Assembly (NCBI GenBank): GCA_963813405.1
Contig: CAWEYU010000005.1
Span: forward strand, 28,122-92,121
Direction of reading: 5' to 3'
DNA: 64,000 nucleotides
Source of the DNA: an uncultured Bacteroidales bacterium
GTDB taxonomy: Bacteria > Bacteroidota > Bacteroidia > Bacteroidales > VadinHA17
The notes beneath the pieces are model-generated. The model was not told the DNA's origin. It saw nothing but the letters and a program-made list of their open reading frames with translations, and made no database searches. The translations under genes were made by a program, and so were the position numbers. This document shows positions 22,352 through 53,660 of this stretch, piece by piece (within the stretch, counting starts at the first letter, position 1; each line of letters starts with the position of its first letter).

Positions 22352-22845
22352 GTTATAGAATTTAAATTATACTAAAGTTATTGGTTTTCCCAATATAAAG
22401 ATACTAGATACTTTTTTCAAAAGGAGGATAACCCGGGATATTATCTTTCAAATACCTGATGATAAAAAGTTTAATATGATATTTACTATAGTTTACCAAA
22501 GCAGATACTCATTCAAGTATATTCGCGTTGTCATGTGATCTGCGAATCCATTCAATGTTATAAGAGATTAGATTTCTTAATAATATCTTAATCTCATTTT
22601 AATTTTATTTTAATTCTATGGAGGGAGTATTAGTATATTTTTACAGTAGTGGTTGGTTTTAAAGAATTTACAATATCTTCCCTACCCGGAAGATGCTTAA
22701 ACTTCTCTTGGAAAGATTGGGTGGCGATGAAACAATAAGGTTATTTTGACGTTAAGAATTAAAGAGTTGATGTGGAGTTCCAATGCAATTTTATCTATGC
22801 TTCTAATCGAAACTAAAATACCTATCTAATAATTATTTGTTCCTG

Positions 22846-23715
22846 ATGTCTAAGACTGGTCATAAAATTTACATAGCAATACTGGTTGCGATAGTATCTT
22901 TCCTTTTCATTACAATTATTTACAGAGGTATATCCTATTATATGGTTGGGATTGAAGAAAGATTTTATCATCCCGATCATAATCTGTTAAAACCAAGTGG
23001 CATTCTTGGCCACGGCATGGGAATAATAGGATCTGTTTTGATGATTGCAGGTGTAATTATCTACATGATTCGGAAAAGATACCGCATATTTGCCAGGATG
23101 GGGGTATTAAAACACTGGCTTGAATTTCACATATTTCTTTGTACTCTTGGCCCAATAATGGTTCTTTTTCATACCGCCTTTAAATTCGGTGGATTAGTGG
23201 CAATAAGTTTCTGGAGTATGGTAGCAGTGTTTCTGAGTGGCATAATCGGCAGGTTTATTTATATACAAATCCCAAGAACGATTGAGGGACGTGAACTTAA
23301 TTTTAATGAAATAAGGGAATTGAAAAGCGATGTTGCCGGATTGGTAAAAAGTTCATACAAATTAGATGAAGAAAGTTATAATATAATTGTCGCTTCTATT
23401 AAAAAAAAGGTTGAGGTGATACATGGAAATCCGATTGTAAGTTTTTTCAGGAAACGTTCCGATGACAGAAGAGCTTTAAAGTCGGTAAAGAGATTACTTA
23501 GGCAAAAAGAAATGGCTAAAACTGATTCCAGAATAATAGTTGCTATGGTAAAAGATGATGTAAAGCTCAACAGGAAAATGGAGAACCTCGATACTATGCG
23601 TAATCTGTTTAAGTACTGGCATGTTGTACATTCTCCATTTGCCCTTCTGATGTTAATTATCATGGTTGTTCATGTTGCAGTTACAATTGTACTTGGTTAT
23701 CGATGGATTTTTTAG
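22846..23715 (+). CDS. His-rich polytopic inner-membrane protein (possible b-haem carrier), first gene of the cytochrome cluster
   Basis: The track start is TTG 22837; ATG is at 22846. There are about 5 TM helices carrying His (GILGHGMGIIG, KHWLEFHIFLC, VLFHTAF, YWHVVHSPFALLMLIIMVVHVAV). A charged loop of about 100 aa lies between TM4 and TM5. Function is inferred only. Confidence 0.5.
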   Translation: MSKTGHKIYIAILVAIVSFLFITIIYRGISYYMVGIEERFYHPDHNLLKPSGILGHGMGIIGSVLMIAGVIIYMIRKRYRIFARMGVLKHWLEFHIFLCTLGPIMVLFHTAFKFGGLVAISFWSMVAVFLSGIIGRFIYIQIPRTIEGRELNFNEIRELKSDVAGLVKSSYKLDEESYNIIVASIKKKVEVIHGNPIVSFFRKRSDDRRALKSVKRLLRQKEMAKTDSRIIVAMVKDDVKLNRKMENLDTMRNLFKYWHVVHSPFALLMLIIMVVHVAVTIVLGYRWIF

Positions 23716-25049
23716 ATATGGAACCACTCCTTGAAAAAATATTGATCTATTCTCTCACTATCATCCTTGCGGTGACGCTGGTTATCATTTACCTGCGGAA
23801 AAAGAGCAAAGAATCGAGAATAGTGGAAGAAAAAATTAAGAAAGCTAAAGAATCAGGCATGCATGAACCTGTTTCTCTGCACCCTTATATTGATGAAACA
23901 AGGTGTATCCAGACAGGAGCATGTATTACGGCCTGTCATGAACATGATATATTAGGAATCAGGAACGGCAAGGCTACGATTATTAATGCCTCCAGGTGTG
24001 TCGGACATGGTGCATGTTTTCATGCGTGTCCTACCGAAGCAATAAGTTTGCGGATAGGGACTGAGCAGAGAGGAGTGGACCTTCCACATATAAATTCAAA
24101 TTTTGAGACTAATGTGTCGGGTATTTTTATTGCAGGGGAACTTGGAGGTATGGGCCTTATTAAAAATGCAACAGTGCAAGGCAGAAAGGCTGCGGAGAAC
24201 ATTGCTAAAACAATAAAAAAAGATCATCCTGCTACTTATGATCTGATAATAGTAGGTGCAGGTCCTGCAGGCATTGCAGCAAGTCTCACAGCAAAGAAAC
24301 TGGGTCTGAAATTCCTGGTACTGGAACAGGATACTCTGGGAGGGACAGTTTTTACTTTCCCAAGAAAAAAAATCGTTATGACTTCTCCGATGGACCTTCC
24401 ACTTGTAGGGAAAGTTAAACTATTTGAGACAAGCAAAGCTGAACTGCTTGATCTCTGGCAGACAGCCCTTCAGAAAAACGAGATTACTATCACAGAAAAT
24501 TCCAAAGTAGAATCAATTGTCTGTGAGAATGGGATATTTAAGGTATTTACTTTGAGAGGAGATAATTTTACAGCTGCAACAGTCTTGCTGGCAATCGGAA
24601 GACGTGGAACACCACGCAAATTGAACGTTCCGGGTGAGATGACAGAAAAAGTTGCCTATCGGTTACTTGAACCCGAGGTAATTTCAGGTAAGGATATTCT
24701 TGTTGTCGGGGGAGGTGATTCTGCAGTCGAAACAGCCTTATTGCTGGCAGAACAGAACCATGTTACAATTTCCTACCGGAGTGATGCATTTAATCGTATA
24801 AAGTCTAAGAATAACACCGCGTTAAATGAAGCCGTTGCTGCTGGAAAATTAGATATCCTGCTTGGTACAAATCTTACATCAATAGAGGAGGGTAACATAA
24901 ATCTTTCATTTGGCAAGGATGGAAAGCAACTTAAGTTAAAAAATGACCTCGTATATATTTTTGCCGGAGGAGAGCTTCCAACACAATTTCTGGAGAAAGC
25001 TGGAATAAAAATAACCAAGAAATTTGGTGAGACAGTTTTGAAACATTAA
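23703..25049 (+). CDS. membrane-anchored 4Fe-4S ferredoxin-domain protein fused to an FAD/NAD(P)-binding oxidoreductase
   Basis: Overlaps the upstream ORF by 13 nt. N-terminal TM (ILIYSLTIILAVTLVIIYL). Two Cys clusters (CIQTGACITAC, CVGHGACFHACP). Dinucleotide folds IIVGAGPAGIAAS and LVVGGGDSAVETA resemble thioredoxin-reductase-type enzymes. Confidence 0.75.
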   Translation: MDFLDMEPLLEKILIYSLTIILAVTLVIIYLRKKSKESRIVEEKIKKAKESGMHEPVSLHPYIDETRCIQTGACITACHEHDILGIRNGKATIINASRCVGHGACFHACPTEAISLRIGTEQRGVDLPHINSNFETNVSGIFIAGELGGMGLIKNATVQGRKAAENIAKTIKKDHPATYDLIIVGAGPAGIAASLTAKKLGLKFLVLEQDTLGGTVFTFPRKKIVMTSPMDLPLVGKVKLFETSKAELLDLWQTALQKNEITITENSKVESIVCENGIFKVFTLRGDNFTAATVLLAIGRRGTPRKLNVPGEMTEKVAYRLLEPEVISGKDILVVGGGDSAVETALLLAEQNHVTISYRSDAFNRIKSKNNTALNEAVAAGKLDILLGTNLTSIEEGNINLSFGKDGKQLKLKNDLVYIFAGGELPTQFLEKAGIKITKKFGETVLKH

Positions 25050-25102: not shown

Positions 25103-26722
25103 ATGTGGAGTAATTTAAAAAAAATATCCGCTGCAGTATTACTAATGGTTTTATCGTTCATAAGGACTGCTGCACAGATCTCACCCGGCGATCTGGCATC
25201 TCCCCATTCTCATCTCGAAGGACTCTCCAATTGTACCCAGTGCCATGTAATAGGAAACAAGGTTACTAATGAAAAATGTCTGATCTGCCATACCGAAATT
25301 CAGCAGAGACTGTCTTCGGGAAAGGGATACCATACCTCTGCGGAAGTCTCCGGAAAGCAATGTACAGCTTGTCATAATGATCATCATGGGAAAAATTTCC
25401 AGCTTGTAAGGTTTGATACTGCAAAATTTGACCATAAACTTACCGGTTATACTTTATCGGTACCTCATGCTAAGAAAAAATGCGCCGATTGTCATGATAC
25501 AAAGTTCATTACAGATCAGAAAGTTAAGATAAAGAAGTACACCTTTATGGGTGTCGGAAAAGAATGTTTAAACTGTCATATTGATTATCATATAAAGACC
25601 CTTTCATCAGCTTGTCTTGATTGTCATAATCCGGACGTTTTTAAACCGGCAACAAATTTTAGTCATGAAAGGACAAAATTTAAACTTTCTGGAAAACATA
25701 AAGAGGTTGAATGTTTAAAATGCCATAAGTTAGAAGTGAAGGAGGGAAAGAAATTTCAGGTGTTCAATGGTATTCAGTTTAGCAGCTGTACCAATTGTCA
25801 TAAAGACCCCCATCAGAACAGATTTGGTCAGCTATGTACCCAGTGTCACAATGAGGAGACATTCAAGGTAGTCAAGGGAAACAATAAATTTGATCATAAT
25901 CTGACCCATTACAAACTGGAAGAGAAGCACCTGACAGTAAACTGCAAAGCCTGCCACAAGACTAATTTTACAGACCCCCTGAAATTCGGGAAATGCACCG
26001 ATTGTCATGCTGATTATCACAAGAAGCAATTTGTAAAGAATAATGTATCTCCCGATTGTACTCCCTGCCACACAGTAAAAGGATTCACTTCTTTTTCTTA
26101 TACCATTGATCAGCATGGTGACGGTAACTTTCCACTTAAGGGCTCTCATGTAGCAGTTCCCTGTAATGAGTGTCATAAAAAACAAAAAGACTGGAGCTTT
26201 AAAGGGATAGGAATTACTTGCAGTGATTGTCACACAGATATACATAAGACATATATAGGAACAAAATATTACCCGGGGGCAAATTGCACTATCTGCCATA
26301 ATGATACAGGGTGGGATAATATAACTTTCGATCATTCAAAAACTAATTTTGTGCTAACCGGCGTTCATTTGAAACAAAATTGCCGGGCTTGTCATATTCC
26401 AATGGATTCTGCCGGGATTGTTCAACGCGATCCAAAGGGAATTATAATGCAGAAATTTACCGGTTTTACAAAAGGATGTACTGAATGTCATACAGATAAT
26501 CATTTCGGACAATTTGCGAAAAACGGCATTTCAACTTGTACCGATTGTCATCAGACAGATAACTGGAAAGCGACAAAATTCGATCATAATTTAACTGCCT
26601 TTAAACTGGATGGCAAACATATAAATGTTGCATGTGCAAAGTGCCATAAGCCTGAAAAGCAGGGATCCAATTTTTATGTTAAATACAAATTAAAAGATTA
26701 TAGATGCGAATCGTGTCATTGA
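25103..26722 (+). CDS. secreted multihaem cytochrome c, 20 CXXCH
   Basis: Signal peptide MWSNLKKISAAVLLMVLSFIRTAAQ. I counted 20 CXXCH motifs by eye. They sit in reiterated F-x-H-x2-H...CxxCH units resembling c7/c3-type polymers. The protein ends in CESCH-stop. Confidence 0.9.
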   Translation: MWSNLKKISAAVLLMVLSFIRTAAQISPGDLASPHSHLEGLSNCTQCHVIGNKVTNEKCLICHTEIQQRLSSGKGYHTSAEVSGKQCTACHNDHHGKNFQLVRFDTAKFDHKLTGYTLSVPHAKKKCADCHDTKFITDQKVKIKKYTFMGVGKECLNCHIDYHIKTLSSACLDCHNPDVFKPATNFSHERTKFKLSGKHKEVECLKCHKLEVKEGKKFQVFNGIQFSSCTNCHKDPHQNRFGQLCTQCHNEETFKVVKGNNKFDHNLTHYKLEEKHLTVNCKACHKTNFTDPLKFGKCTDCHADYHKKQFVKNNVSPDCTPCHTVKGFTSFSYTIDQHGDGNFPLKGSHVAVPCNECHKKQKDWSFKGIGITCSDCHTDIHKTYIGTKYYPGANCTICHNDTGWDNITFDHSKTNFVLTGVHLKQNCRACHIPMDSAGIVQRDPKGIIMQKFTGFTKGCTECHTDNHFGQFAKNGISTCTDCHQTDNWKATKFDHNLTAFKLDGKHINVACAKCHKPEKQGSNFYVKYKLKDYRCESCH

Positions 26723-28770
26723 CGATATTAAGTCTATTTACCATACTTCTCAATGGGCAAACTAATTCACCCCATGGGGTTGCCTTTAAGGTAAGCTGCA
26801 AAACCTGTCATAGTTCAAAAGGCTGGCAACTCGATAAATCAATCTACTCCTTTGATCACAATACCACAAAATTACCACTCGCCGGCCAGCACGTCCAGGT
26901 AAGCTGCAGGCAATGCCATCCAACCCTGGTATTTTCGGAAGCAAAGACCAATTGTATCGATTGCCATATGGATATTCATCAGGCGACGGTTGGATTTAAC
27001 TGCACAAGATGCCATACACCGCAATCGTGGCTGGTAAATAACATAAACAATATTCACCAGATGAGCCGTTTCCCATTAATTGGGGCTCACAGGACAGCAG
27101 ATTGTTCACAATGTCACAAGTCTGAAAGTCTGTTGCGTTTTGATGCTATCGGAATTAATTGTGTGGATTGCCATCTGGATAAGTATCTGGCCACCACAAA
27201 TCCAAACCATCCCCAGGGGGGGATATCCAGGGAATGCATCTTATGCCACTCTATGACAGCATTTGAATGGGGTGGAGCAGGCTTTAACCATAATGTATTT
27301 CCATTGGTTCAGGGACATTCAGTACCTAAATGCTCCGATTGCCATAAAACATCAGGTTTTTCCGGTTTAAGTACAAATTGCAATTCCTGTCACCAGCCTG
27401 ATTTTGCAGCGGCCAATAATCCTGATCATAATGCATCAAAATTTGCCACAACATGCCAGGACTGTCATTCACTTAGTCCAGGTTGGAAACCTGCAACATT
27501 CACTCATTCAAATTTCTCCCTGGCACTTGGTCATTCAACTGCAGCTTGTATCGATTGCCATACAGGGGGAAATTATACCTCAACTTCAACTGCATGTTAT
27601 GCATGTCATCAGCAGAATTATTCATCAGCTAAAAATCCAAATCATATATCAGCCGGTTTTTCTCAGCTTTGCCAGGATTGTCATTCACTGAAGCCAGGAT
27701 GGAAGCCGACTGGTTTCAATCATAGCGGATTCCCGCTTACCCTGGGTCATTCAGTACCAGTTTGTTCAGATTGTCATAAAACAACAAGCTATGCTTCCAC
27801 TCCAACTGCTTGTTATTCATGTCATCAGGTTGATTTTACAGCAGCATTAAATCCTAACCATTCTACCGCAGGATTTCCAACCAGTTGTGAGACATGTCAT
27901 ACTACAACTCCAGGATGGAAACCTGCGTCATTCAACCACACGAGTTTCCCTCTTACACTTGGGCATGCAATACCCACCTGTGCTGATTGCCATAAAGGTA
28001 ATTATACAGTGACATCGATCGACTGTTATGCATGTCACCAGAAGGATTATACAGCAACTACAAATCCGAATCATAATTTATCTGGTATTCCTACTGCCTG
28101 CAAGACATGTCACACCACGAATCCTGGATGGACTCCTGCGACATACAATCATACTACTTTCCCGCTTACGCTCGGACATGCCACACCAACCTGTAACGAT
28201 TGCCATAAAGGTAATTATACAGTGACATCAACCGACTGTTATGCATGTCACCAGAAGGATTATACAGCAACTACAAATCCGAATCATAATTTATCTGGTA
28301 TTCCTACTGCCTGCAAGACATGTCACACCACTAATCCGGGATGGACTCCGGCAACTTACAACCATACTGTTTTTCCGCTTACGCTCGGACATGCCACACC
28401 AACCTGCAACGATTGTCACAAAGGAAATTATACAACAACATCCACCGATTGCTACGCCTGTCATACTGCTGATTACAATAACAGCACCAATCCTAACCAT
28501 AGAACATTAGGATTTGCAACTGTATGTACACAATGTCATACTACTACTCCGGGATGGAAACCTGCGTCATATACTCAGCATGACGCTCAATTCTTTCCGA
28601 TTTATTCCGGCCGACATCTTGGCAGATGGACTAAATGCAGCGATTGTCATACAAATACAACTAATTATCTTTTGTTTGATTGTATCCACTGCCATACAAG
28701 TTCGCATAGAGGAAGCAATTACTCCAATGCGCAATGTTATAGCTGCCACCCAAGAGGAACAGGAGGATAG
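26704..28770 (+). CDS. secreted multihaem cytochrome c, 28 CXXCH (7 N-terminal, 6 tri-haem modules, 3 C-terminal)
   Basis: The start overlaps the upstream stop by 19 nt. Short signal peptide MRIVSLTILSLFTILLNGQ. I counted 28 CXXCH motifs by eye. Confidence 0.9.
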   Translation: MRIVSLTILSLFTILLNGQTNSPHGVAFKVSCKTCHSSKGWQLDKSIYSFDHNTTKLPLAGQHVQVSCRQCHPTLVFSEAKTNCIDCHMDIHQATVGFNCTRCHTPQSWLVNNINNIHQMSRFPLIGAHRTADCSQCHKSESLLRFDAIGINCVDCHLDKYLATTNPNHPQGGISRECILCHSMTAFEWGGAGFNHNVFPLVQGHSVPKCSDCHKTSGFSGLSTNCNSCHQPDFAAANNPDHNASKFATTCQDCHSLSPGWKPATFTHSNFSLALGHSTAACIDCHTGGNYTSTSTACYACHQQNYSSAKNPNHISAGFSQLCQDCHSLKPGWKPTGFNHSGFPLTLGHSVPVCSDCHKTTSYASTPTACYSCHQVDFTAALNPNHSTAGFPTSCETCHTTTPGWKPASFNHTSFPLTLGHAIPTCADCHKGNYTVTSIDCYACHQKDYTATTNPNHNLSGIPTACKTCHTTNPGWTPATYNHTTFPLTLGHATPTCNDCHKGNYTVTSTDCYACHQKDYTATTNPNHNLSGIPTACKTCHTTNPGWTPATYNHTVFPLTLGHATPTCNDCHKGNYTTTSTDCYACHTADYNNSTNPNHRTLGFATVCTQCHTTTPGWKPASYTQHDAQFFPIYSGRHLGRWTKCSDCHTNTTNYLLFDCIHCHTSSHRGSNYSNAQCYSCHPRGTGG
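27283..28569 (+). repeat. six tandem in-frame tri-haem modules (3 x 216 bp, then 3 x 213 bp)
   Basis: Module consensus: [FY]NH-x2-FPLTLGH-x4-C-x-DCH-(9-11)-C-Y-x-CH-(9)-NPNH-(10)-C-x2-CH-x3-PGW-x-PA. Units 27991-28203 and 28204-28416 are about 94% identical, with a perfect core of about 100 nt. Confidence 0.9.
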
Positions 28771-28854
28771 AGTTTATTATATCAATGTGATTATTATCAT
28801 ATATGACCAGACAAGACTTAGAGTTTAATTCCGTTAATTAACAGTGTAAAGTCA

Positions 28855-30063
28855 ATGCGATTCCTGTCTTTAATAATTATAGTGATCATGCTGATCTTTA
28901 ATAGGTTGCAGACTGATTCTCCACATGGCAGCAATTTTAAAATTAGCTGCAAGGTTTGTCATAGTTCAAAAGGCTGGCAACTCGATAAATCAATCTACTC
29001 CTTTGACCATAATAAAACCAGGTTACCTTTGACAGGTCAGCATACAATTTTGAACTGCAGAGAATGTCATCTTACTCTGGTATTTTCAGAAGCAAAAACA
29101 AATTGCATCGATTGTCATAAAGATATTCACCAGGCAACCGTAGGCCTCGAATGTTCAAGATGCCATACTCCCAATTCCTGGCTTGTCCAGAATATTAGTG
29201 ATATCCACCAGATTAGTCGTTTCCCTTTACTTGGAGCGCACAGAACCGCTGATTGTGAACAATGTCACAAATCGGAAAGCCTGCTTCGGTTTGATGTAAC
29301 CGGCATAAATTGCATAGATTGTCATCGCCAAACCTATCAGGGGACCACGAATCCAAATCATGTACAGGCTGGATTTTCACAGGATTGTGCATCATGCCAC
29401 TCAATTACTGCATTTCAGTGGGGAGGTGCGGGCTTTGACCATAGGATTTTTCCCCTGGAACAGGGGCATTCCGGTTTGAAATGTTCGGATTGCCACACTG
29501 CAGGCCCGTTTACTTCTACAAGTTCAGCGTGCTACTCCTGTCATCAACAGCAATTTACAGCAGCAAAAAACCCCGATCATATTACGGCCAATTTTTCGAC
29601 CAACTGTAAGGATTGTCATTCCCTGAGTCCAGGATGGAAGCCAGCCACATTTGACCATTCAACCTTTCCACTGACGCTTGGGCATGCAACGCCAAGTTGT
29701 GCAGATTGCCATAAGGGTAACTTTACAAACCTGTCTAAAGATTGCAATTCCTGTCACCAGACGGATTATAACAATTCTACAAACCCCAATCATAAAACAT
29801 TAGCTTTTTCCACAACATGTACGCAATGTCATACAACAAATCCGGGTTGGACTCCGGCAACCTACACACAGCATGATACTCAGTTCTTTCCAATCTATTC
29901 CGGAAGACACAGGGGAACATGGACCCTTTGTAAAGATTGTCATACAAACACCACCAATTACCTGCTGTTCGATTGTATCCATTGCCATACAAATGTCCAC
30001 CGGGGGAACAATTATACCAATGCACAATGTTATACTTGCCATCCCAGGGGGACAAACAATTAA
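28855..30063 (+). CDS. secreted multihaem cytochrome c, 16 CXXCH (short paralogue of the 28-haem protein)
   Basis: Signal peptide MRFLSLIIIVIMLIFNRLQ. The N-terminal 7-haem and C-terminal 3-haem regions match ORF 26704, but only two tri-haem modules lie between them. The 50-nt tract 28957-29006 is identical to 26806-26855. Confidence 0.9.
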   Translation: MRFLSLIIIVIMLIFNRLQTDSPHGSNFKISCKVCHSSKGWQLDKSIYSFDHNKTRLPLTGQHTILNCRECHLTLVFSEAKTNCIDCHKDIHQATVGLECSRCHTPNSWLVQNISDIHQISRFPLLGAHRTADCEQCHKSESLLRFDVTGINCIDCHRQTYQGTTNPNHVQAGFSQDCASCHSITAFQWGGAGFDHRIFPLEQGHSGLKCSDCHTAGPFTSTSSACYSCHQQQFTAAKNPDHITANFSTNCKDCHSLSPGWKPATFDHSTFPLTLGHATPSCADCHKGNFTNLSKDCNSCHQTDYNNSTNPNHKTLAFSTTCTQCHTTNPGWTPATYTQHDTQFFPIYSGRHRGTWTLCKDCHTNTTNYLLFDCIHCHTNVHRGNNYTNAQCYTCHPRGTNN

Positions 30064-30075: not shown

Positions 30076-31683
30076 ATGAGGTTGTTGTTTTTTATATCAT
30101 TTCTAATTTTAATATGTACAGAAATAGAAGGGCAAACAGGTGTCGAAAATCTGCAGGGAGTGGTATCTTTTATAAGTTCCCAGAATATTTATGTGAAGTT
30201 TAAATCGACAAATGGAATTTCTTCAGGAGATACTTTATATATTTCAGCTGGTGGGAAGATGATCCCGGCACTAAAAGTTAACAACCTCTCTTCAATCTCT
30301 TGTATTTGCACACCTTTGGTTAGTACCAGTTTCAAAGTCTCGCAAGTAATAACAGCAAAAGCAAATTATAAATCAAAAAGTCCGGCAGAAAAGAGAGTTG
30401 TGACAGGTACCAAAGTAAATCCGCCTCAACCAATTTATTCTGATACTGCGAGAAAGAAGGTTGTCTCAAAAGAGTTTCAGCAAAAAATAAATGGCAGCCT
30501 GGCTGCATATTCCTATTCAAGCTTCTCCAATACTTCTGCACCAGGTTCAAATCAATTAAGGTACACATTCTCTCTCAATGCGCGGAATATCCTCGACTCA
30601 AAGTTCTCTGTAAATACATATGTTTCATTCAGACATAAATTAGGTGACTGGAGTGCAGTAAGGAACGATATTTTTAACGCACTTAAAGTTTATGACCTTT
30701 CGGTTTCTTATGATCCCAATAAGACAACACACTTAAGTGTGGGCAGAAAAATTAACTATAATATCTCAAGTATCGGGGCAATGGATGGGCTTCAGTTTGA
30801 AAAGTTCATTAACAGGTTCGGTTTTGGTGTAGTTGCGGGATTCAGACCATCATATGCCAATTATGGATTTGACAGCAGGCTTTTTCAGTATGGAGCCTAC
30901 CTGGCATTAAATTCAAAACCTGATGAAGTATTTCACCAGACATCTTTCGCAGTAATGGAGCAGATGTACAATTCCAAAACCGACAGGAGGTTTCTTTATT
31001 TTCAGCATACAAACATGCTGATAAAAAATGTATACTTTTTCGGTACTTTGGAAGCGGATCTGTATAAGGTTCAGAAAGACAAGCCCCAGAATACATTTGA
31101 TGTGACCAGTTTATACTTATCACTGCGGCTGAATATTACAAAAAACCTCTCAATAACGGGCTCATATGATGCAAGAAAGAACATAACATACTATGAGACA
31201 TATAAATCACTTCTCGACAGTGTTTTGATTAACCAGACCCGGCAGAGTATAAGGGTGCAGATAAATTACCGGATAAAAAACAATATAATGTTTGGAGTTC
31301 AATCTGATTACAGGTACTTGAAAACCGACCCTGCTCCAACAAGAAATGTCTATGGATACCTGACATACAGTAAGATTCCGGGGATAGGTGTATCAGTTAC
31401 TTTGTCAGGGACATATCTTGAATCAGGCTTTTTAAAGGGCCAGGTGCTGCAGGCCAGGCTTTCCCGCGACCTGTTCCAGGGAAAGTTTCAGGCGGAGGCA
31501 GGGTATCAATATGTTGATTACAGGCTTCCTGAGAGTCAATTAAGTACACTTCAGCATATTGGAGAATTTGGTATATACTGGCAATTTGCAAAGAAGATGT
31601 CATTTTCAGCAAATTATGAGGGCACTTTTGAGAGGAAAAACACTTATGACAGAATTTATTTGCAGCTCAGAAAGAGATTCTGA
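30076..31683 (+). CDS. predicted outer-membrane beta-barrel protein (porin-like partner of the cytochromes)
   Basis: Signal peptide. A soluble N-domain of about 100 aa. About 400 aa of alternating hydrophobic/polar strands rich in Y/G/S/N. C-terminal ...IYLQLRKRF ends in an aromatic residue. Starts 12 nt after the 16-haem gene. Confidence 0.6.
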   Translation: MRLLFFISFLILICTEIEGQTGVENLQGVVSFISSQNIYVKFKSTNGISSGDTLYISAGGKMIPALKVNNLSSISCICTPLVSTSFKVSQVITAKANYKSKSPAEKRVVTGTKVNPPQPIYSDTARKKVVSKEFQQKINGSLAAYSYSSFSNTSAPGSNQLRYTFSLNARNILDSKFSVNTYVSFRHKLGDWSAVRNDIFNALKVYDLSVSYDPNKTTHLSVGRKINYNISSIGAMDGLQFEKFINRFGFGVVAGFRPSYANYGFDSRLFQYGAYLALNSKPDEVFHQTSFAVMEQMYNSKTDRRFLYFQHTNMLIKNVYFFGTLEADLYKVQKDKPQNTFDVTSLYLSLRLNITKNLSITGSYDARKNITYYETYKSLLDSVLINQTRQSIRVQINYRIKNNIMFGVQSDYRYLKTDPAPTRNVYGYLTYSKIPGIGVSVTLSGTYLESGFLKGQVLQARLSRDLFQGKFQAEAGYQYVDYRLPESQLSTLQHIGEFGIYWQFAKKMSFSANYEGTFERKNTYDRIYLQLRKRF

Positions 31684-40482: not shown

Positions 40483-41802
40483 ATGACAAAACAGATAATA
40501 TTTGCTCTTACACTCCTGGTGACCATCGGAATGTTTACCTATACTATTTCCAGAATAATCAGTTTTTTCAGGTTTACAAGATCAGGCTTCACCGTAAATG
40601 ACTTTGGGAAAAGATTAAATATAATGCTGAAAGTTGCCTTCGGGCAGACCAAGATCTTTCGGAGACCTGTTATAGGTTTATTTCATGCACTTGTCTTCTG
40701 GGGATTTTGTGTGATCCTTTTTGGCAGCATTGAAATGGTTATCGACGGGCTTGCCGGAACAGACAGGGTATTGACCTTCCTCGGATCATTGTATAATATA
40801 ATTATCGGGTCAGGCGATGTCTTTGCATTTCTGGTAGCTATCTCTATTATAATCTTTCTCTGCAGGCGTCTCTTTTTTCATATCAGACGTTTTGAGGGAA
40901 TTGAAATGAAAAAAATATCTCATATTGATGCAAATATTGCGCTGTCAATAATACTGCTTCTAATGCTCTCATTGCTTGGCATGAATGTTGGATATGTTGA
41001 ATATAAGGCAATTACTGGTGAGGCAATTAAGGGGGTATACCCTGTAAGCAGCTTAATTGCACCATTGTTTGCCAATCAATCAGCGCGGTTCCTTGGCAAT
41101 CAGTATGAAGCTTGCTGGTGGACCCATATAATTCTGATATTTATTTTTGCCAATGTACTTCCCTACTCCAAACATTTCCATGTCTTCATGTCGGTTCCGA
41201 ACGTCTTCCTTTCAAGACTTGAGCCTCTTGGAAAACTTAAAAATATGGACAATATCACAAAGGAGGTTAAACTCATTATGGACCCAAATACAGCTTTCGC
41301 AGCTCCTCCTCAGGATTCCCCCATGGAACGTTTTGGTGTTAGGGATGCTGAAGATGTAACGTGGAAGAACTATTTCGATTCATTATCATGCACTGAGTGT
41401 GGCCGGTGCACATCAGTCTGCCCGGCTAATATCACAGGAAAGAAACTCTCGCCCCGTAAAATCGTGATGGACCTCAGGGCAAGAATGAAAGAAAAGGGTC
41501 CTTTGATGGTCAAAAACGGCCGTGATTTCAATGATAATAAATCCCTTCTCAGGAACTATATTTCAGAAGAAGAGTTATGGGCATGCACAACCTGTAACGC
41601 CTGTGCGGAAGAGTGTCCGATAAACATCAACCAGCCTTCAATAATTGTTGATATGAGAAGGTATCTCGTGATGGAGGAAGCATCTGCACCTGGTGAATTG
41701 AAGGCATTATTTAAGAATATTGAAAACAACGGTGCACCATGGCAGTATTCTGCAGAAGACAGACTTAACTGGACAAAGGATTTAGAAATCAATTTCAAAT
41801 AG
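40483..41802 (+). CDS. membrane-bound Fe-S oxidoreductase, N-terminal part (polytopic membrane domain plus 2x[4Fe-4S])
   Basis: About 6 TM helices, then [12 protein letters not shown] and [12 protein letters not shown]. Its position after etfBA recalls the ETF-linked membrane Fe-S oxidoreductases of syntrophs. Confidence 0.7.
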
Positions 41803-41803: not shown

Positions 41804-42598
41804 ATGGAACTCAGGAAAATCGAAGTACCTGTTATGGCGGACCTTTTTGCACGAGGTGAAAAACCGGAATATCTGTTCTGGGTTGGGTGTGCAGGTGCTT
41901 TTGATGACAGGTATAAAAAGGTTGTCAGAGCTTTTACCAAAATTCTTGCTCACCTCAATGTAAGCTATGCCGTACTTGGCAGGGAAGAGACATGTAATGG
42001 TGATCCTGCACGACGGGCCGGTAACGAAATGCTATATCAGATGCAGGCCCTGCAGATAATTGAAGTTTTTAAGATGTATGAGGTAAAAAAGATTATCACC
42101 ATTTGTCCTCATTGTTACAATATATTTAAGAATGAATATCCTGATCTGGGCGGAAACTATGAAGTTATCAATTACCTTCAATTTTTAAACAAATATCTGG
42201 CTGAAGGGAAATTTAAGATAGATAAAGAATCCCTGAAGAATGTTTCTGTTACATACCACGATCCATGCTATCTGGGAAGGGCAAATAGCATTTACAATGA
42301 GCCGCGTTCAATTCTGAGTTTACTTACCGGCAACTTTACAGAAATGCACAGAAGTAAAAGCTTTGCTCTATGCTGTGGTGCGGGAGGAGCTCAGATGTTT
42401 AAAGAGGCTGAGAAGGGTGACAAAGAAGTTTTTATCGAACGAATTGAAGATGCTCTTAAAACAAATGCCGAAGTCATTGCGACTGCATGTCCGTTCTGTA
42501 TGACAATGCTTACAGACGGTCTGAAATACAAAAACAAAGAGGAAGAGATAAAGAACCTTGATATTGCCGAATTAGTGGCACAATCACTTCAATTATAA
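41804..42598 (+). CDS. CCG-domain (heterodisulfide-reductase-like, GlpC/DUF224-type) Fe-S subunit
   Basis: Starts 1 nt after the upstream TAG. It has two Cys-rich CCG-type motifs (FWVGCAGAF...ICPHC and HDPCYLGR...ALCCGAGG...ACPFC). Confidence 0.7.
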   Translation: MELRKIEVPVMADLFARGEKPEYLFWVGCAGAFDDRYKKVVRAFTKILAHLNVSYAVLGREETCNGDPARRAGNEMLYQMQALQIIEVFKMYEVKKIITICPHCYNIFKNEYPDLGGNYEVINYLQFLNKYLAEGKFKIDKESLKNVSVTYHDPCYLGRANSIYNEPRSILSLLTGNFTEMHRSKSFALCCGAGGAQMFKEAEKGDKEVFIERIEDALKTNAEVIATACPFCMTMLTDGLKYKNKEEEIKNLDIAELVAQSLQL

Positions 42599-44635: not shown

Positions 44636-45010
44636 ATGAACCAAAACCCAATGAAGCTAACGAAGAACCTGGTTGCTGTTATCCTTTTGGTTACAGCTGC
44701 AATATTCACTTCTTGTGAAAAGGTTAAAGAGCTGCCGACTCCATTTGATCCATCAGCAATATGGCATTTTCAGAGTGATATTCAACCGATCTTTAATGCC
44801 AATTGCATCACCTGTCATAATGGATCGAGGTCTCCCGACCTGAGAAGTGGTAAATCATACAGCGCTCTCAGTAAAGGATATTTAATTCCTCCAGCCGAGA
44901 CAAGCAGAATCTATGTGAAAATAACCAGTTCTGACCATCTGGCTAGAACTACAGATATTCAAAAAGCAAAAATTCTCTATTGGATCAAACAGGGAGCCCT
45001 GAATAACTAA
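44636..45010 (+). CDS. small lipoprotein with one CXXCH (planctomycete-cytochrome-C-like domain)
   Basis: Lipobox AAIFTSC. Motif IQPIFNANCITCHNGSRSPDL. Confidence 0.6.
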   Translation: MNQNPMKLTKNLVAVILLVTAAIFTSCEKVKELPTPFDPSAIWHFQSDIQPIFNANCITCHNGSRSPDLRSGKSYSALSKGYLIPPAETSRIYVKITSSDHLARTTDIQKAKILYWIKQGALNN

Positions 45011-45039
45011 CTATAACTAACCTATTAAAACTATACACA

Positions 45040-45927
45040 ATGAAAAAAATATTTATCGTATTGATATTGTCAGCATTTATGACACCTGCCTTCTGCCAGG
45101 AATCTACTCAGGCTCAGGAAGGATCAAAGCCTGTCAGAAATACTTTTGGAACAGGTACATTAATTGAGAACCAGACAGTTGCTACTCCATATAAAGGTGG
45201 AATTGAACTTAATATTCAGCACCGTTTCAGTCGCATTACAACTTATGTGGATCTTTTTGGCATCTATGGTTCAGCTAATACCAGGATTGGACTTAATTAC
45301 GGTATTACAGACAGAATAATGATAGGAGTAGGAACAACAAAAGACTATATGTTACAGGATCTTCAGTGGAAGTATCTTATCCTGCAGCAGACGCAGGATG
45401 GCAAAATGCCGGTATCCCTTTCATATTTTGGAAACTTTGTAATTGACGCAAGAAGTGACAATGCTTTTGGTCCTAAAGTCTCCTATAAATTCATACACAG
45501 ATTTTCATATTTAACCCAATTGATTGTAGCCCGTAAGTTTGGTGAAAAGATTTCCGTTCAGGTAGCTCCTTCAATGGCCTATTTCAATTCTTCTCCAAAG
45601 TATCTGGCAGAAGGTGATACAATTTATCATAATTATAAGAATTTGAATTTTGGTGTTTCAGCCGGACTGAGAGCAAATCTTTTCGGTGCACATTCCCTGA
45701 TTCTTGAGTACGATCAGCTTCTGACCAAACAGGATCTGGGAACCGGTGATCCTCAACCAAAACCAAATCTTTCGCTGGGTTGGGAAATTGGAACCGGCAC
45801 GCATACTTTTCAGGTTTTTGTAACTAATTACAACCAGATAATCAGCCAGAGAAATCTGGTATTTAACACAAATGATTTTACCAAAGGCGATTATATGGTA
45901 GGTTTTAATATTACCGTGAGATTCTAA
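45040..45927 (+). CDS. outer-membrane beta-barrel protein (DUF5777-like)
   Basis: Signal peptide. Contains LIENQTVATPYKGGIELNIQHRFS. Alternating strand pattern. Terminal residues ...GFNITVRF. Confidence 0.5.
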   Translation: MKKIFIVLILSAFMTPAFCQESTQAQEGSKPVRNTFGTGTLIENQTVATPYKGGIELNIQHRFSRITTYVDLFGIYGSANTRIGLNYGITDRIMIGVGTTKDYMLQDLQWKYLILQQTQDGKMPVSLSYFGNFVIDARSDNAFGPKVSYKFIHRFSYLTQLIVARKFGEKISVQVAPSMAYFNSSPKYLAEGDTIYHNYKNLNFGVSAGLRANLFGAHSLILEYDQLLTKQDLGTGDPQPKPNLSLGWEIGTGTHTFQVFVTNYNQIISQRNLVFNTNDFTKGDYMVGFNITVRF

Positions 45928-45946
45928 TCATTACCAGGAATCAGTG

Positions 45947-46948
45947 ATGAAAATTAGCAGATTCCTGATCATCTTTTTTATTCTTCTTATCTGGAATACT
46001 TCTGCATCCTTTGCAGGAGTATTCGGATTTAAAAAAGGTGATCAGAAGAGACAGGACACTACCACATTTGTTTCCCAGTATGCCGGAGATAATGAGCGTT
46101 GCCTTAAATGCCATGGTCAGGGAAAGTATGAATATACCAACGAAACTCTTAAAAAGCAGATCAGGGCGCTGATGTGCTCAGAAAGGATTGTAAAGAGAGA
46201 GGAATTTTATAAATCGAACCATAAAAATTTCAAATGTACCGACTGTCATTCTGAACAGTATTCAACTTTCCCTCATCCGGGAGAACTCAGGATGGAACAA
46301 AAATTCAATTGTATCGATTGTCATGGTGGTGATGAGAAATATGCTCAGTATCATTTTGAGGCCATTGATTCCGAATACATGCAGAGTACACATTTTAAGC
46401 TGCAGGATGATGGATTCTCATGCTGGAAATGTCATAATCCGCATACCTATAGAATAACAGTAAGGAACAGCGACAATGTAAAGGAGACAATTTCATACGA
46501 CAACAGCATATGTCTCAGCTGTCATTCCAACTTTGACCGCTTTATGCTGCTGACTGACAGAAAAGAAATTAGTATACTGAAGACACATGACTGGCTTCCA
46601 AACCAGGCTGTTCATTTTCAGAATGTAAGATGTATTGAGTGCCACACAAAAATAAATAACAATATTCTGGTCTCACATCTCATCAGGCCAAAAGCTGAAG
46701 CGGTGAGACGCTGCAACGAATGTCATTCACAGAATTCCATCCTGATGGCTACCCTGTATAAGTTTCAGTCAAAAGAGAAACGACGCGCAGGATTCTTTAA
46801 CGGAGCCATTCTGAATGAATCATATGTAATAGGGGCTAACAGGAATGAATATCTGAATATATTCAGCCTTATTATTTTTATTGTGATCCTGGGTGTGATC
46901 GGGATTCATATAACTTTCAGGGTAAGAAAGAATAAGAAAACAATTTAA
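45947..46948 (+). CDS. membrane-anchored heptahaem cytochrome c
   Basis: 7 CXXCH motifs (CLKCH, CTDCH, CIDCH, CWKCH, CLSCH, CIECH, CNECH). N-terminal signal or anchor and a C-terminal TM (IFSLIIFIVILGVIGIHITF). The track start GTG 45944 is adjacent to ATG 45947. Confidence 0.85.
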   Translation: MKISRFLIIFFILLIWNTSASFAGVFGFKKGDQKRQDTTTFVSQYAGDNERCLKCHGQGKYEYTNETLKKQIRALMCSERIVKREEFYKSNHKNFKCTDCHSEQYSTFPHPGELRMEQKFNCIDCHGGDEKYAQYHFEAIDSEYMQSTHFKLQDDGFSCWKCHNPHTYRITVRNSDNVKETISYDNSICLSCHSNFDRFMLLTDRKEISILKTHDWLPNQAVHFQNVRCIECHTKINNNILVSHLIRPKAEAVRRCNECHSQNSILMATLYKFQSKEKRRAGFFNGAILNESYVIGANRNEYLNIFSLIIFIVILGVIGIHITFRVRKNKKTI

Positions 46949-46959
46949 AGGAAAGAGAG

Positions 46960-47577
46960 ATGTATTTATACCCTAAATGGATAAGAGCCTGGCATGTAAT
47001 TAATGCCCTTATGTTCATAATACTTATTGTAACAGGTATCAGCATGCAATATACTGATAAAGAAAATTCATCTTATGTAGTAGGTTTTGCCAAAGCCGTA
47101 AAGATGCATAATTTTGCAGCTCTCATCCTCACAGCGGGATACGTGGTATTTATATTAGGGAATGCCTTTACGGGCAATAAAAAATATTACAGGATCAGCA
47201 GGAAGAATTTTTGGGCTGATCTGATGACACAGCTTAAATATTATTCGGTCGGGATGTTCAGGGGGGAAAAACATCCTTTTCCTGTAACAATGGAAAGAAA
47301 GTTCAATCCGCTTCAGAAGTTCACTTATGTACTTGCAATGTATGCAGGTATGCCTTTGCTCATTATTACAGGTATTGTTTTGCTTTTTCCCGAATTGGTT
47401 CTGAACAAGGTATTTGGGATGAGCGGTCTTCTGATAAATGATATTTTGCATATCACAACCGGATATCTACTTTCAATATTCATGGTAGTACATATCTACA
47501 CCTGCACCCTGGGTGCGAAGCCCTCATCACTTTTCTGGGGAATGATATCAGGCTATCATGAATCTGACGATCATTAA
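46960..47577 (+). CDS. dihaem cytochrome b subunit (PhsC / Ni-Fe-hydrogenase b-type family)
   Basis: 205 aa with 4-5 TM helices. Conserved His in the TM helices (RAWHVINAL, VKMHNFAAL, ILHITTGY, VVHIYT). Confidence 0.7.
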   Translation: MYLYPKWIRAWHVINALMFIILIVTGISMQYTDKENSSYVVGFAKAVKMHNFAALILTAGYVVFILGNAFTGNKKYYRISRKNFWADLMTQLKYYSVGMFRGEKHPFPVTMERKFNPLQKFTYVLAMYAGMPLLIITGIVLLFPELVLNKVFGMSGLLINDILHITTGYLLSIFMVVHIYTCTLGAKPSSLFWGMISGYHESDDH

Positions 47578-47594
47578 TAACGCGAAAATCTAAT

Positions 47595-48563
47595 ATGAAG
47601 GAAATGGATGATAGTGATAAAAGTAATTCATCGAGGCGGAACTTTCTGAAAAAGGTCGGGGTCGGAGTAGGTGCAGTAACTCTTGCCGGTGTCGCCGGTA
47701 CTTCAATGTTAAAAGGCGGTGAAGCAAAAGCGAAATCCGGTAAGATGATAAAACTTCTTTCTCCCGACGGCAAGCTTGTCGAAGTCGACCAGAATGATAT
47801 TAAGCCTGCTAAAGAGATTCTTGCAGAGCTAAAGACCGCTGCAAGGGCAGGATTGCCAAACCGGAAATTTTCTATGGTGATCGACCTTGCCAGATGCAAA
47901 AATGCAAGGAAATGTGTTGAAGCATGCCAGGAAGGACACCTTCTTCCTAAGGATCATGAATGGATGAAGCTATATCTTCTTCAGGATGATAAACATACTG
48001 CAAAGTATTGGTTTCCGAGGCCATGCTTTCATTGCGATAAACCCATGTGCGTTAGCGTATGCCCTGTCGGAGCAACCTATAAGAGACCTGACGGAATAGT
48101 ATTAATAGATAATCAACGTTGTATTGGCTGTAAGTTTTGCATGACCGGATGTCCCTTTTCAGCAAGAGTTTTCAACTGGAAAGATCCAGAAGTAAAGGTT
48201 CCTCCCGGACATGTCTATGATCCTGAGACAAATATCCCTGCTGTGGAGGGAACTGTAGGAAAATGCGTCTTTTGTGCTGACAATCTTCGTAAGAACGAGC
48301 TTCCCCGTTGCGTTACTGCCTGTCCAATGGGTGTAATCTTTTTCGGTGACATTCTTGAGGATACTGTAACCAATGGAAATGAAACAGTCAGGTTCAGCAA
48401 ACTTATGCTCGATAGGGCAGGTTACAGATATCGTGAGGAACTCGGAACTTTACCCAGTGTCTATTATCTGCCTCCTAATCAGAGAATGTTTCCGGTAGAT
48501 AGTGGCTTGGAAGGGACGGATGAGAAAATAAAAGGCAGATATAAAAATGTCGGCCCACGCTAA
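47595..48563 (+). CDS. Tat-exported 4x[Fe-S] ferredoxin subunit (NrfC/PsrB/HybA-like)
   Basis: Twin-arginine motif SRRNFLKKVGVGVGAVTLAG. Four Cys clusters (CKNARKCVEAC, CFHCDKPMCVSVCP, CIGCKFCMTGCP, CVFC...CVTACP). Confidence 0.85.
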   Translation: MKEMDDSDKSNSSRRNFLKKVGVGVGAVTLAGVAGTSMLKGGEAKAKSGKMIKLLSPDGKLVEVDQNDIKPAKEILAELKTAARAGLPNRKFSMVIDLARCKNARKCVEACQEGHLLPKDHEWMKLYLLQDDKHTAKYWFPRPCFHCDKPMCVSVCPVGATYKRPDGIVLIDNQRCIGCKFCMTGCPFSARVFNWKDPEVKVPPGHVYDPETNIPAVEGTVGKCVFCADNLRKNELPRCVTACPMGVIFFGDILEDTVTNGNETVRFSKLMLDRAGYRYREELGTLPSVYYLPPNQRMFPVDSGLEGTDEKIKGRYKNVGPR

Positions 48564-48589
48564 TATTTTCAACGTTAATCAGAAATAAA

Positions 48590-49897: not shown

Positions 49898-49909
49898 CTG
49901 ATAAAGGCA

Positions 49910-50800: not shown

Positions 50801-50853
50801 AGTAAAAATTTGCACGATAATTGTATTGATAGTTTAATTAAAACCAAATTATT

Positions 50854-51249
50854 ATGAAAACTTTAAAACTTATCTTTTTAGGCTCAGCCATACTGGTATT
50901 GAGTGCTTCTCTGGTTGCACAACCCAAACCATGGGTAGTTCCTGCTAATTTCAAGTCGATGAAGAATCCGGTCGCAAAGGGCGACGCAAGCAACAAGGCA
51001 GGAATGGCTATTTATACCAAGAACTGTGCATCCTGCCACGGAAAAGCTGGTCTTGGTGACGGTGTGAAAGCAAGAGCTCTTAAAGATTTCCCGGGAGATT
51101 TTTCAAAAGCAGAATTCCAGGGACAGACAGATGGTGATCATTTCTACAAGACTAAAATGGGAAGAGGTGAAATGCCAAAGTACGAAGGAAAACTATCAGA
51201 TGACGATATCTGGAACGTTGTAAATTATATGAGAACGTTTAAGAAGTAA
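50854..51249 (+). CDS. monohaem class-I cytochrome c
   Basis: 131 aa with a signal peptide. CASCHG, a distal GRGEMPKY Met ligand and WNVVNYM. Confidence 0.85.
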   Translation: MKTLKLIFLGSAILVLSASLVAQPKPWVVPANFKSMKNPVAKGDASNKAGMAIYTKNCASCHGKAGLGDGVKARALKDFPGDFSKAEFQGQTDGDHFYKTKMGRGEMPKYEGKLSDDDIWNVVNYMRTFKK

Positions 51250-53510: not shown

Positions 53511-53660
53511 AGTTTGTTGTTTTTGGTACAGATTATTGGTTATTAATGTTATAAATTTCACAATCATTTCGCCATGCAATGTACAAATTGGTTCTGTTAA
53601 TTGATAAACAGGTTTGCTGATATTTGCAATACGCTAAATTGATACATATGACCCATAAAG

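Follow-up and report, generated by a model that had tools for sequence, protein, structure and literature searches.

Introduction

Porin-cytochrome clusters of the PCC3 type have been predicted from the genomes of Alpha-, Beta- and Gammaproteobacteria (He et al. 2017, PMC5566968). They combine a porin and an inner-membrane protein with two cytochromes, one periplasmic with about 21 haems and one repeat-rich and 'extracellular' (PMC5566968). The 'extracellular' cytochrome is rich in Thr, Ser, Ala and Gly, with a median haem number of 34 and a maximum of 85, and PCC3 cytochromes in general use 22-39 amino acids (aa) per haem (PMC5566968). The inner-membrane protein of PCC3 and PCC4 has a signature of five helices, with SGXXG in helix 4 and WX3HX13H in helices 3 and 5, and has been interpreted as a ferric-reductase-type carrier with two b haems (PMC5566968). 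Gallionellaceae PCC3 clusters encode 21, 24 or 27 haems in the periplasmic subunit and 10-35 in the outer one (PMC9900912). Differences in haem number between homologous multihaem cytochromes have been noted earlier and are not known to have been explained; they have been called an unexplored area of multi-domain protein evolution (PMC7399161). Here we describe a cluster of six closely packed plus-strand genes in a 64,000-nucleotide (nt) stretch of DNA from an uncultured Bacteroidales bacterium of the VadinHA17 lineage (GenBank assembly GCA_963813405.1, contig CAWEYU010000005.1, positions 28,122 to 92,121; hereafter the window, with positions counted from its first letter). Genes 4 and 5 of the cluster encode a long and a short variable cytochrome, and the sixth encodes an outer-membrane barrel protein. 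We show that the two cytochromes differ by whole three-haem modules and that the number of modules changes by recombination.

Results

Two adjacent cytochromes differ by four tri-haem modules

The two variable cytochromes can be divided as follows:

26704-28770 (+): long variable cytochrome, 688 aa, 28 CxxCH
26704-27264 (+): long form, N-terminal 7-haem region
27265-27480 (+): long form, module m1
27481-27696 (+): long form, module m2
27697-27912 (+): long form, module m3
27913-28125 (+): long form, module m4
28126-28338 (+): long form, module m5
28339-28569 (+): long form, module m6
28570-28767 (+): long form, C-terminal 3-haem region
28855-30063 (+): short variable cytochrome, 402 aa, 16 CxxCH
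28855-29415 (+): short form, N-terminal 7-haem region
29416-29631 (+): short form, module m1
29632-29862 (+): short form, module m2
29863-30060 (+): short form, C-terminal 3-haem region

An earlier reading of this DNA, made from the sequence only, had described paralogs with 28 and 16 haems that share a 7-haem N-terminal and a 3-haem C-terminal region and contain six and two modules, respectively, in between. Exact counting of motifs and residues reproduced the haem numbers, and gapless pairwise alignments confirmed the common ends. Residues 1-259 of the long and short proteins align with 69% aa and 70% nt identity, and the C-terminal 143 residues with 76% aa identity (BLASTP of the long against the short protein, E = 2e-166). 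The CxxCH motifs of both proteins recur with a periodic spacing of 31-32, 15-16 and 25 residues, and neither protein contains CX3CH or CX4CH variants. Cutting the sequences at this period yields modules of 71-72 aa with three CxxCH apiece, and the 286 aa by which the long form exceeds the short correspond to exactly four of them (72, 72, 71 and 71 aa), as six modules against two would require. Haems 5-7 of the N-terminal region (aa 112-187) are themselves module-like (FPLxGAH...CxxCH...CxDCH...TNPNH...CxxCH), so that the proteins could alternatively be described as 4 haems, 7 or 3 modules, and 3 haems; the four-module difference is unaffected by this choice.

Neighboring modules in the long form are mostly well diverged from one another, with 44-66% aa identity. 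The Pfam family Cytochrome_C7 matched the long form with 106.5 bits in 7 stretches and the short form with 57.8 bits (cutoff 24.8). The long form has 29 His outside CxxCH for its 28 haems and only 3 internal Met, making bis-His ligation of all haems likely, and every CxxCH and candidate distal His is kept in both copies. Haems are densely packed along the chain, at 24.6 aa per haem in the long form and 25.1 in the short (24.6-26.9 for the window's cytochromes overall). Both proteins are rich in Thr (11-13.5%), Ser (~8.6%) and Asn and are near neutral in charge. A motif resembling the hematite-binding [ST]-P-[ST] occurs three times in the long form and once in the short; we discarded it, since a motif of only three residues should arise by chance in a protein so rich in Thr, Ser and Pro.

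A hybrid module points to unequal crossing-over

Comparing the long gene with itself revealed an exact direct repeat that was absent from the earlier reading:

28020-28118 (+): 99-nt exact direct repeat, copy 1, in the 3' half of m4
28233-28331 (+): 99-nt exact direct repeat, copy 2, in the 3' half of hybrid module m5

The copies are offset by 213 nt, the length of one module, and Tandem Repeats Finder reported a 213-nt period across 27890-28558. Module m5 is a composite of its neighbors. Its 5' half is nearest to m6 (86% nt identity), and its 3' half is 97% identical in nt to m4, including the 99 identical nt, and 61% identical to m6. The order m4, m6/m4 hybrid, m6 is the product expected of an unequal crossover between misaligned m4 and m6, and a relative with 25 haems has only the m4 and m6 equivalents. 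The hybrid also bears substitutions found in neither parent module. Several independent lineages have neighboring modules that are almost identical (0.9-0.99 aa identity), situated toward the C-terminal end of the array. The composite structure of m5 shows it to be a gain by unequal crossing-over between modules.

An identical tract links the long and short genes

The earlier reading had also reported identical DNA tracts between the two genes and suggested gene conversion. One such tract is present:

26806-26855 (+): 50-nt tract in the long gene, encoding CHSSKGWQLDKSIYSFD, identical to 28957-29006
28957-29006 (+): partner of the 50-nt tract, in the short gene

The identity is exact at these positions, but the plural was an overstatement, as this is the only identical run of at least 17 nt between the genes. 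Outside the tract, about half of the identical amino acids in the long/short alignment use identical codons, so a run of this length is not expected by chance; one was reached in none of 20,000 codon-column shuffles and in 1 of 20,000 shuffles that preserved amino-acid conservation. Synonymous sites are saturated between the paralogs, with synonymous divergence (dS) either not computable or about 3, and the tract spans about 16 codons. The long and short genes of two sister genomes share identical runs of at most 11-18 nt and are not identical over the 50-nt tract, so that the tract reflects a short conversion specific to the window lineage. Gene conversion is the best reading of the tract, and the saturated dS, the shuffles and its restriction to the window genome all strengthen the earlier suggestion.

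The duplication is older than the split of its closest relatives

Two metagenomic contigs match the window in gene order (YqeY, the cluster, a CDF transporter, DUF362, PFK, LytB). Their barrel proteins are 80% and 75% identical to that of the window; in the genome collection the best barrel match has 57% identity, and an exact-sequence look-up of the short cytochrome returned no match. The long copy has 25 and 31 haems in these two relatives versus 28 in the window. The short copy has 16 haems and 402 aa in the window and in L081, L082 and L083. Modules m1-m4 are orthologous across the three long genes, and the differences are confined to the distal 71-aa modules. Nucleotide identity among these relatives is 76-82% between long copies, 75-81% between short copies and 64-69% between long and short, so that orthologs group by type and the duplication must be older than the split of these genomes. 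Module number is thus not fixed among related genomes. The variation was seen between related species, with barrels 75-80% identical, and not between strains of one species; at that level, the 25, 28 and 31 haems, the hybrid m5 and the series described below strongly support the earlier prediction that the repeats drive length variation.

Three independent short contigs (L082, L087 and a Logan contig of ERR12037368) contain the short cytochrome and the barrel and break off within the long gene or right after it. Assembly broken by the repeats, or a population mixed in module number, would account for this.

The earlier reading had raised the alternative that one paralog is a redundant duplicate in decay. 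We found nothing in favor of this idea, which we regard as scarcely credible. Both open reading frames have stayed intact across three genomes that are nearly saturated at synonymous sites. The ratio of nonsynonymous to synonymous divergence (dN/dS) is 0.05-0.09 for the long and short copies (0.05-0.08 for the short copy) when compared with their orthologs (dS 1-2.7), so both are under purifying selection and neither copy is decaying. Haem motifs and candidate distal His are retained in each, and long-plus-short pairs occur in at least 13 loci, with what appear to be several origins.

Haem numbers across the family follow a three-haem series

We fetched 80 genome loci around barrel homologs, from Bacteroidales, Marinilabiliales, Prolixibacteraceae and Saprospiraceae and including isolates of Draconibacterium, Labilibaculum and Gaoshiqia. 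All 79 intact variable cytochromes in these loci fit a series of 13+3n haems with a range of 13-55; the counts observed were 13, 16, 19, 22, 25, 28, 31, 34, 37, 40, 43, 49, 52 and 55. Length rises with haem count at 24.1 aa per haem (r = 0.9995, 79 intact reading frames), and the best 120 metagenomic homologs show the same three-haem steps. Apparent counts of 21, 23, 29, 33, 39, 14 and 51 haems proved not to be real exceptions; they were caused by contig truncation, long-read frameshifts, runs of N, start-codon calls or CX4CH variants. We conclude that module number changes by unequal homologous recombination between adjacent modules, with occasional short gene conversion between the long and short paralogs, and that the family-wide series results from this.

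Thirteen loci, including the window, carry two variable paralogs. In 11 of the 13 the order is long, short, barrel; in the other two (L004 and L024) a 13-haem copy lies directly 3' of the barrel. A neighbor-joining tree of the N-terminal region suggests that long-plus-short pairs originated several times.

We also considered whether collapsed or expanded tandem repeats in the assemblies could mimic differences in module number. The arrays are repetitive, with exact repeats of up to 99 nt in the window, several short-read contigs stop at or just past the long gene, and some long-read loci contain frameshifts. An artefact of this kind is nevertheless very improbable, because all 79 intact reading frames are in frame and obey 13+3n, most modules in the window are well diverged (44-66% aa identity between neighbors), and the hybrid module has substitutions of its own. 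In addition, many of the loci lie on contigs of 0.5-2 Mb or come from isolates (Draconibacterium, Labilibaculum, Gaoshiqia and the Emticicia plasmid described below).

Some loci from Prolixibacteraceae and Draconibacterium (L049, L056, L063-L067, L072, L076 and L078) keep the 13-haem core intact and place additional modules after the C-terminal-type triplet. Their arrays consist of two alternating subtypes (spacings 32,15,25 and 33,15,23) that form a 6-haem super-repeat, and the totals still follow the three-haem step. This mode of expansion differs from that of the window clade. Two Saprospiraceae loci hold very long arrays. In L079 (3-3779) the gene has at least 51 haems and is cut by the contig end; in L073 (3931-9990) an array of ~6 kb is broken by frameshifts in a long-read assembly and might encode ~80 haems if intact.

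The paralogs belong to a conserved gene cluster

The four other genes of the cluster are:

22837-23715 (+): predicted di-haem b-type inner-membrane protein, 292 aa (289 aa from the ATG at 22846)
23703-25049 (+): membrane-anchored Fe-S flavoprotein, 448 aa
25103-26722 (+): constant 20-haem cytochrome c, 539 aa, 20 CxxCH
30076-31683 (+): outer-membrane barrel protein, 535 aa

The membrane-protein and flavoprotein genes overlap by 13 nt and the genes of the 20-haem and long cytochromes by 19 nt. The other gaps measure 12-84 nt, with the barrel start codon 12 nt past the stop of the short cytochrome. From these overlaps and short gaps we take the genes to form an operon that is probably co-transcribed. 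Terminator-like sites were absent from the plus strand within the cluster. Neither scanning for sigma-70 promoters nor looking for the Bacteroidetes -7 motif TAnnTTTG between the genes gave useful information. Wherever a contig was long enough, the gene order was conserved (inner-membrane protein, flavoprotein, 20-haem cytochrome, variable cytochrome or cytochromes, barrel), and the flanking genes differed among related loci. The barrel gene adjoins a variable cytochrome gene in all loci, and in all loci that include the membrane-protein gene the flavoprotein gene follows it directly. In the closest relative (L081, 542-5214) this last pair is doubled in tandem, as 289+448 aa and 290+443 aa, upstream of the 20-haem cytochrome.

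The membrane protein contains the motifs WLEFH-x13-H, SGIIG and WHVVH-x13-H and, judged by eye, five hydrophobic segments; a Pfam search with it gave no match. Two WX3HX13H motifs flanking SGxxG are present in 62 of 62 covered loci and in 120 of 120 homologs, and it is from these motifs that we predict a haem-b carrier. Many homologs are labeled 'sulfur relay (sulfurtransferase) DsrC/TusE family protein' in JGI data, a label that looks erroneous for a five-helix membrane protein with His pairs, and a few have a precomputed match to PF14358 (DUF4405). Relatives with 22-27% identity adjoin cytochrome c3-family and Fe-S genes on proteobacterial plasmids.

The flavoprotein has an N-terminal transmembrane helix, a ferredoxin-like domain and a FAD/NAD(P)-binding Pyr_redox_3 domain (Pfam Pyr_redox_3, E = 1e-40; Fer4 families, ~1e-8). 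Its best NCBIfam match is YpdA-like and far under the cutoff. All 63 homologs contain two C-x2-X-x2-C-x3-C motifs and no redox-active CxxC, with the second Cys swapped for Thr or Ser in motif 1 and for an invariant His in motif 2. These replacements imply 3Fe-4S clusters or ligation by residues other than Cys, and since the flavin domain lacks CxxC, the protein is not a disulfide reductase despite its YpdA/TrxR-like matches.

The 20-haem cytochrome is Lys-rich, with a net charge of +24, and has a Sec-type signal peptide, from which a periplasmic location is predicted. It matched Cytochrome_C7 with 87.6 bits in 7 stretches (cutoff 24.8). Nearly all loci encode 20 haems in this protein, and L068 and Emticicia encode 23 (20+3).

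The barrel protein begins with a signal peptide, followed by an N-terminal beta domain (aa 26-94) and a disordered linker (aa 98-128). An AlphaFold2 model, with a mean predicted local distance difference test score (pLDDT) of 76.3, places a 22-strand beta-barrel at aa 137-534, with no plug domain predicted within it. Pfam and NCBIfam searches with the protein gave no match, and a Foldseek comparison with the PDB returned only generic large outer-membrane barrels, with TM-scores of 0.3-0.46. Homologs number more than 1,400 at 90% clustering, in Bacteroidota metagenome bins; a profile search of 1.84 billion representatives yielded 1,452 clusters, almost all of 520-560 aa. Among the ten lowest-ranked of the 150 barrel relatives listed, all that were named came from Ignavibacteriota. 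In 24 homologs the N-terminal domain has invariant Cys76 and Cys78 (S-S-x-S-C-x-C). This domain might dock a cytochrome.

A cultured bacterium carries the cluster on a plasmid

The cultured freshwater aerobe Emticicia oligotrophica DSM 17448 (Cytophagales) carries the cluster (genes EMTOL_RS21090-21110) on its 100-kb plasmid pEMTOL02 (L084, NC_018749.1, 81299-89995). The order there is ccsA, membrane protein, NAD(P)-binding protein, 23-haem cytochrome, 40-haem cytochrome (13+27) and barrel, with a gene for a GW-dipeptide-domain protein directly downstream of the barrel gene. A search of plasmids with the barrel protein found Emticicia only, and one with the 20-haem protein gave only weak partial matches to small cytochromes. 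The location on a plasmid hints at horizontal mobility.

The cluster is consistent with a conduit across the envelope

Taken together, these data fit a reading in which tandem functional paralogs change their module number by recombination and form the outer part of a conduit that spans the envelope, with length perhaps setting reach. We consider this combined reading probable, while holding it with some reserve. Electrons from NAD(P)H or a similar cytoplasmic donor would be taken up by the membrane-anchored FAD/Fe-S protein and passed to the di-haem-b inner-membrane protein; the adjacency of the two genes suggests such a NOX-like transfer from NAD(P)H. The 20-haem cytochrome, which would be long enough to cross the periplasm, would then hand the electrons to the variable cytochrome or cytochromes associated with the 22-strand barrel, and these to an extracellular acceptor, or receive them from an extracellular donor. 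The earlier reading had supposed that two wires of different length could span different distances or partners. On a speculative view drawn by analogy, module number would set the physical length of the outermost wire at ~1 nm per haem, and the long and short copies would give conduits reaching ~28 and ~16 nm.

Several points weigh against this reading. It stands on sequences and predicted structures, from which we infer conduit function, the location of the cytochromes, the direction of electron flow and the link between number and reach. The variable cytochromes have Sec-type signal peptides only, and as read from the sequence they lack a lipobox and a type-9-secretion C-terminal domain, so that no path to the cell surface is evident for them except via the barrel. 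An AlphaFold2 model of the 16-haem protein, built on a 33-sequence alignment, had a mean pLDDT of 45 and was unusable, so for the rod shape and the length per haem we rely on analogy with Geobacter sulfurreducens GSU1996 and published PCC3 models. MtrB of Shewanella (6r2q_B) ranked tenth in the structural comparison with the barrel, with a query-normalized TM-score of 0.34, no better than FimD, AlgE or PfeA. No genome of the same species was found, and short-read contigs break at the long gene. Finally, as Emticicia is aerobic, a role confined to anaerobic metal respiration is unlikely.

The same signal peptides would suit a different role, in which the variable cytochromes stay in the periplasm as an electron store, module number being its capacity and the barrel passing a shuttle or substrate. 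Two roles have been discussed for multihaem cytochromes of very large size, GSU1996 and those of PCC3 included, and storage is one of them; the linear scaling of length with haem number suits capacity as well as reach. However, the barrel gene strictly adjoins a variable cytochrome gene in all loci, and the 22-strand barrel, predicted to be free of a plug, could hold a cytochrome. The variable cytochromes also differ sharply in composition from the 20-haem protein, being near neutral and rich in Thr, Ser and Asn where the latter is of a Lys-rich, +24, periplasmic type, which suggests a different environment. For these reasons we think the store doubtful as an explanation of the cluster.

Less probable still is a periplasmic or outer-membrane respiratory module for a soluble substrate, resembling the high-molecular-weight cytochromes of the Hmc or Tmc type, in which the barrel would be an ordinary porin and there would be no extracellular electron transfer. 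Occurrence of the cluster in an aerobic isolate would fit such a module, as would weak matches to PDB 1Z1N and 1H29 and a match to the hexadecahaem HmcA family NF045713 (~23 bits); this score is far under the family's cutoff of 400, though, and the cluster contains no conserved catalytic subunit and no molybdopterin, Ni-Fe or sirohaem enzyme. The conserved pair of a cytoplasm-facing flavoprotein and a di-haem-b protein points to electron transfer across the membrane rather than to a periplasmic enzyme.

Going further than the envelope-spanning conduit, we can imagine, as a tentative and on balance unlikely proposal by analogy, a quinone-independent 'electron exhaust' of Bacteroidota and Ignavibacteriota. 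In it, a split NOX-like module of flavoprotein and di-haem-b protein would feed electrons derived from NAD(P)H into a single-polypeptide wire, tuned genetically in 3-haem steps by unequal crossing-over from 13 to 55 or more haems (~13-55 nm on the GSU1996 scale), with two reaches in genomes that have both a long and a short copy.

Other redox genes in the window

A second, unrelated cytochrome cluster occupies 44636-51249 (+). It starts with a 124-aa monohaem protein and continues as follows:

45040-45927 (+): DUF5777 beta-barrel
45944-46948 (+): heptahaem c7-type cytochrome
46960-47577 (+): cytochrome b561/Ni_hydr_CYTB protein
47595-48563 (+): Tat-signal 4Fe-4S protein
48590-49897 (+): NrfD-type membrane protein, followed by a 296-aa protein (no Pfam match) and a 131-aa monohaem protein

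A DUF5777 barrel gene also lies beside a c-type cytochrome gene on the Emticicia plasmid. Elsewhere in the window, 54514-57282 (+) encodes a 922-aa fusion of ResB and CcsA for cytochrome c maturation by System II, and in Emticicia a ccsA gene directly precedes the homologous cluster. The product of 52131-53579 (-), 482 aa long, has five CxxCH and only a weak Cytochrome_C7 match. Between 38710 and 44405 (+) lie EtfB- and EtfA-like reading frames, a 4Fe-4S membrane protein (40483-41802), a CCG-domain protein (41804-42598) and a 592-aa acyl-CoA dehydrogenase-like reading frame; Pfam supports the 4Fe-4S and CCG domains, and the Etf and acyl-CoA dehydrogenase labels were read from the sequence. Together these genes resemble an electron-transfer module tied to fatty-acid or amino-acid oxidation.

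Discussion

The family offers an unusually clean case of change in haem number, with a fixed three-haem unit, an arithmetic series of counts and single-unit differences between close relatives. The hybrid module m5 displays the recombination mechanism directly, and the locus offers a clean model for how multihaem wires change length. The cluster extends a PCC3-like architecture to Bacteroidota and Ignavibacteriota, and with it a family of more than 1,400 barrels, all annotated as hypothetical. Members of both phyla abound in sediments, soils and anaerobic digesters, and extracellular electron transfer has seldom been attributed to them. A route around the quinone pool is suggested by the conserved flavoprotein of NAD(P) type. 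If the 'electron exhaust' were true, it would be a heritable and fast-evolving setting of the working distance of extracellular electron transfer, in contrast to the polymerized nanowires OmcS and OmcZ. Because Emticicia and isolates of Draconibacterium, Labilibaculum and Gaoshiqia carry the cluster in culture, the hypothesis is open to direct testing.

Comparison with known systems

Like the proteins of the window, GSU1996, GSU0592 and GSU2210 of G. sulfurreducens are single polypeptides of tandem tri-haem c7-type modules with repeated Pfam Cytochrome_C7 (PF14522) matches, and the GSU1996 family has been proposed to act as a 'nanowire' or electron store. GSU1996 (PDB 3OV0, 3OUE), with four tri-haem c7-type domains, was the sole solved structure with a detectable, if marginal, sequence relationship. 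The 20-haem protein matched 3OV0 in phmmer with E = 2e-5, and a profile of the variable-cytochrome family gave marginal matches (3OUE, E = 7e-4; 3OV0, E = 3e-3); phmmer with the 28-haem protein by itself found no match among PDB sequences. Scores for NCBIfam TIGR04257 (nanowire_3heme, cutoff 40 bits) stayed below the cutoff, at 32.1 bits for the long form and 27.0 for the 20-haem protein, and the short form had no match. Each domain of GSU1996 has one His-Met haem. The window modules, of 71-72 aa with three candidate distal His and likely bis-His ligation, differ from these domains. Moreover, GSU1996 is periplasmic with no adjoining barrel gene, whereas the variable cytochromes of the window adjoin one.

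A barrel gene beside multihaem cytochrome genes, for electron transfer across the outer membrane, is also the logic of MtrCAB in Shewanella and of OmbB-OmaB-OmcB and Ext in Geobacter. Specific similarity to these complexes was absent in both sequence and fold. In the window, haem numbers are far larger and variable, and a dedicated inner-membrane module belongs to the same cluster. Scores against the DmsE/MtrA family TIGR03508 were 47.5 and 44.9 bits, well below its cutoff of 192. MtrB has 26 strands, compared with 22 in our barrel model. A lipobox like those of MtrC and OmcA is absent from the three cytochromes; none has a Cys in the signal peptide, and the first Cys of each belongs to a CxxCH.

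The inner-membrane part resembles transmembrane di-haem domains of the ferric-reductase/NADPH-oxidase (FRD/NOX) type in having two H-x13-H pairs on two transmembrane helices and, as its neighbor, a cytoplasm-facing FAD/NAD(P) protein. By analogy, the pair suggests that electrons from NAD(P)H may cross the membrane without quinones. It differs from FRD/NOX in that Pfam FRD does not match and the flavoprotein is a separate, thioredoxin-reductase-like (Pyr_redox_3) protein with an added Fe-S domain.

The closest resemblance is to PCC3, with which the window cluster shares four kinds of parts when compared by published description rather than by sequence; both systems are known from genomics. The constant cytochrome has 21, 24 or 27 haems in PCC3 and 20 or 23 in the window family; the variable cytochrome has 10-85 and 13-55, respectively, and is repeat-rich and Thr/Ser-rich in both. 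The inner-membrane signature defined for PCC3 is present in the window membrane protein, which at 292 aa falls in the same ~300-aa class, and the number of aa per haem is similarly low (22-39 in PCC3, 24.6-26.9 in the window). Every architectural feature that could be compared was found, which argues for a PCC3-like envelope conduit.

The two systems also differ. PCC3 has so far been reported in Proteobacteria and the window-type cluster occurs in Bacteroidota and Ignavibacteriota, where, unlike in PCC3, a flavoprotein gene always lies between the inner-membrane-protein and 20-haem genes. PCC3 porins have up to 42 predicted strands, whereas the barrels of the window type are uniform, with ~535 aa, 22 strands and an N-terminal domain. 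Published PCC3 haem numbers are irregular (10-18, 26-35), in contrast to the strict 13+3n of the window family. Variable haem number in PCC3-type cytochromes is already known (PMC5566968, PMC9900912, PMC7399161). What is new here is the strict three-haem step, the recombination footprint, the recurrent long-plus-short pairs and the flavoprotein partner.

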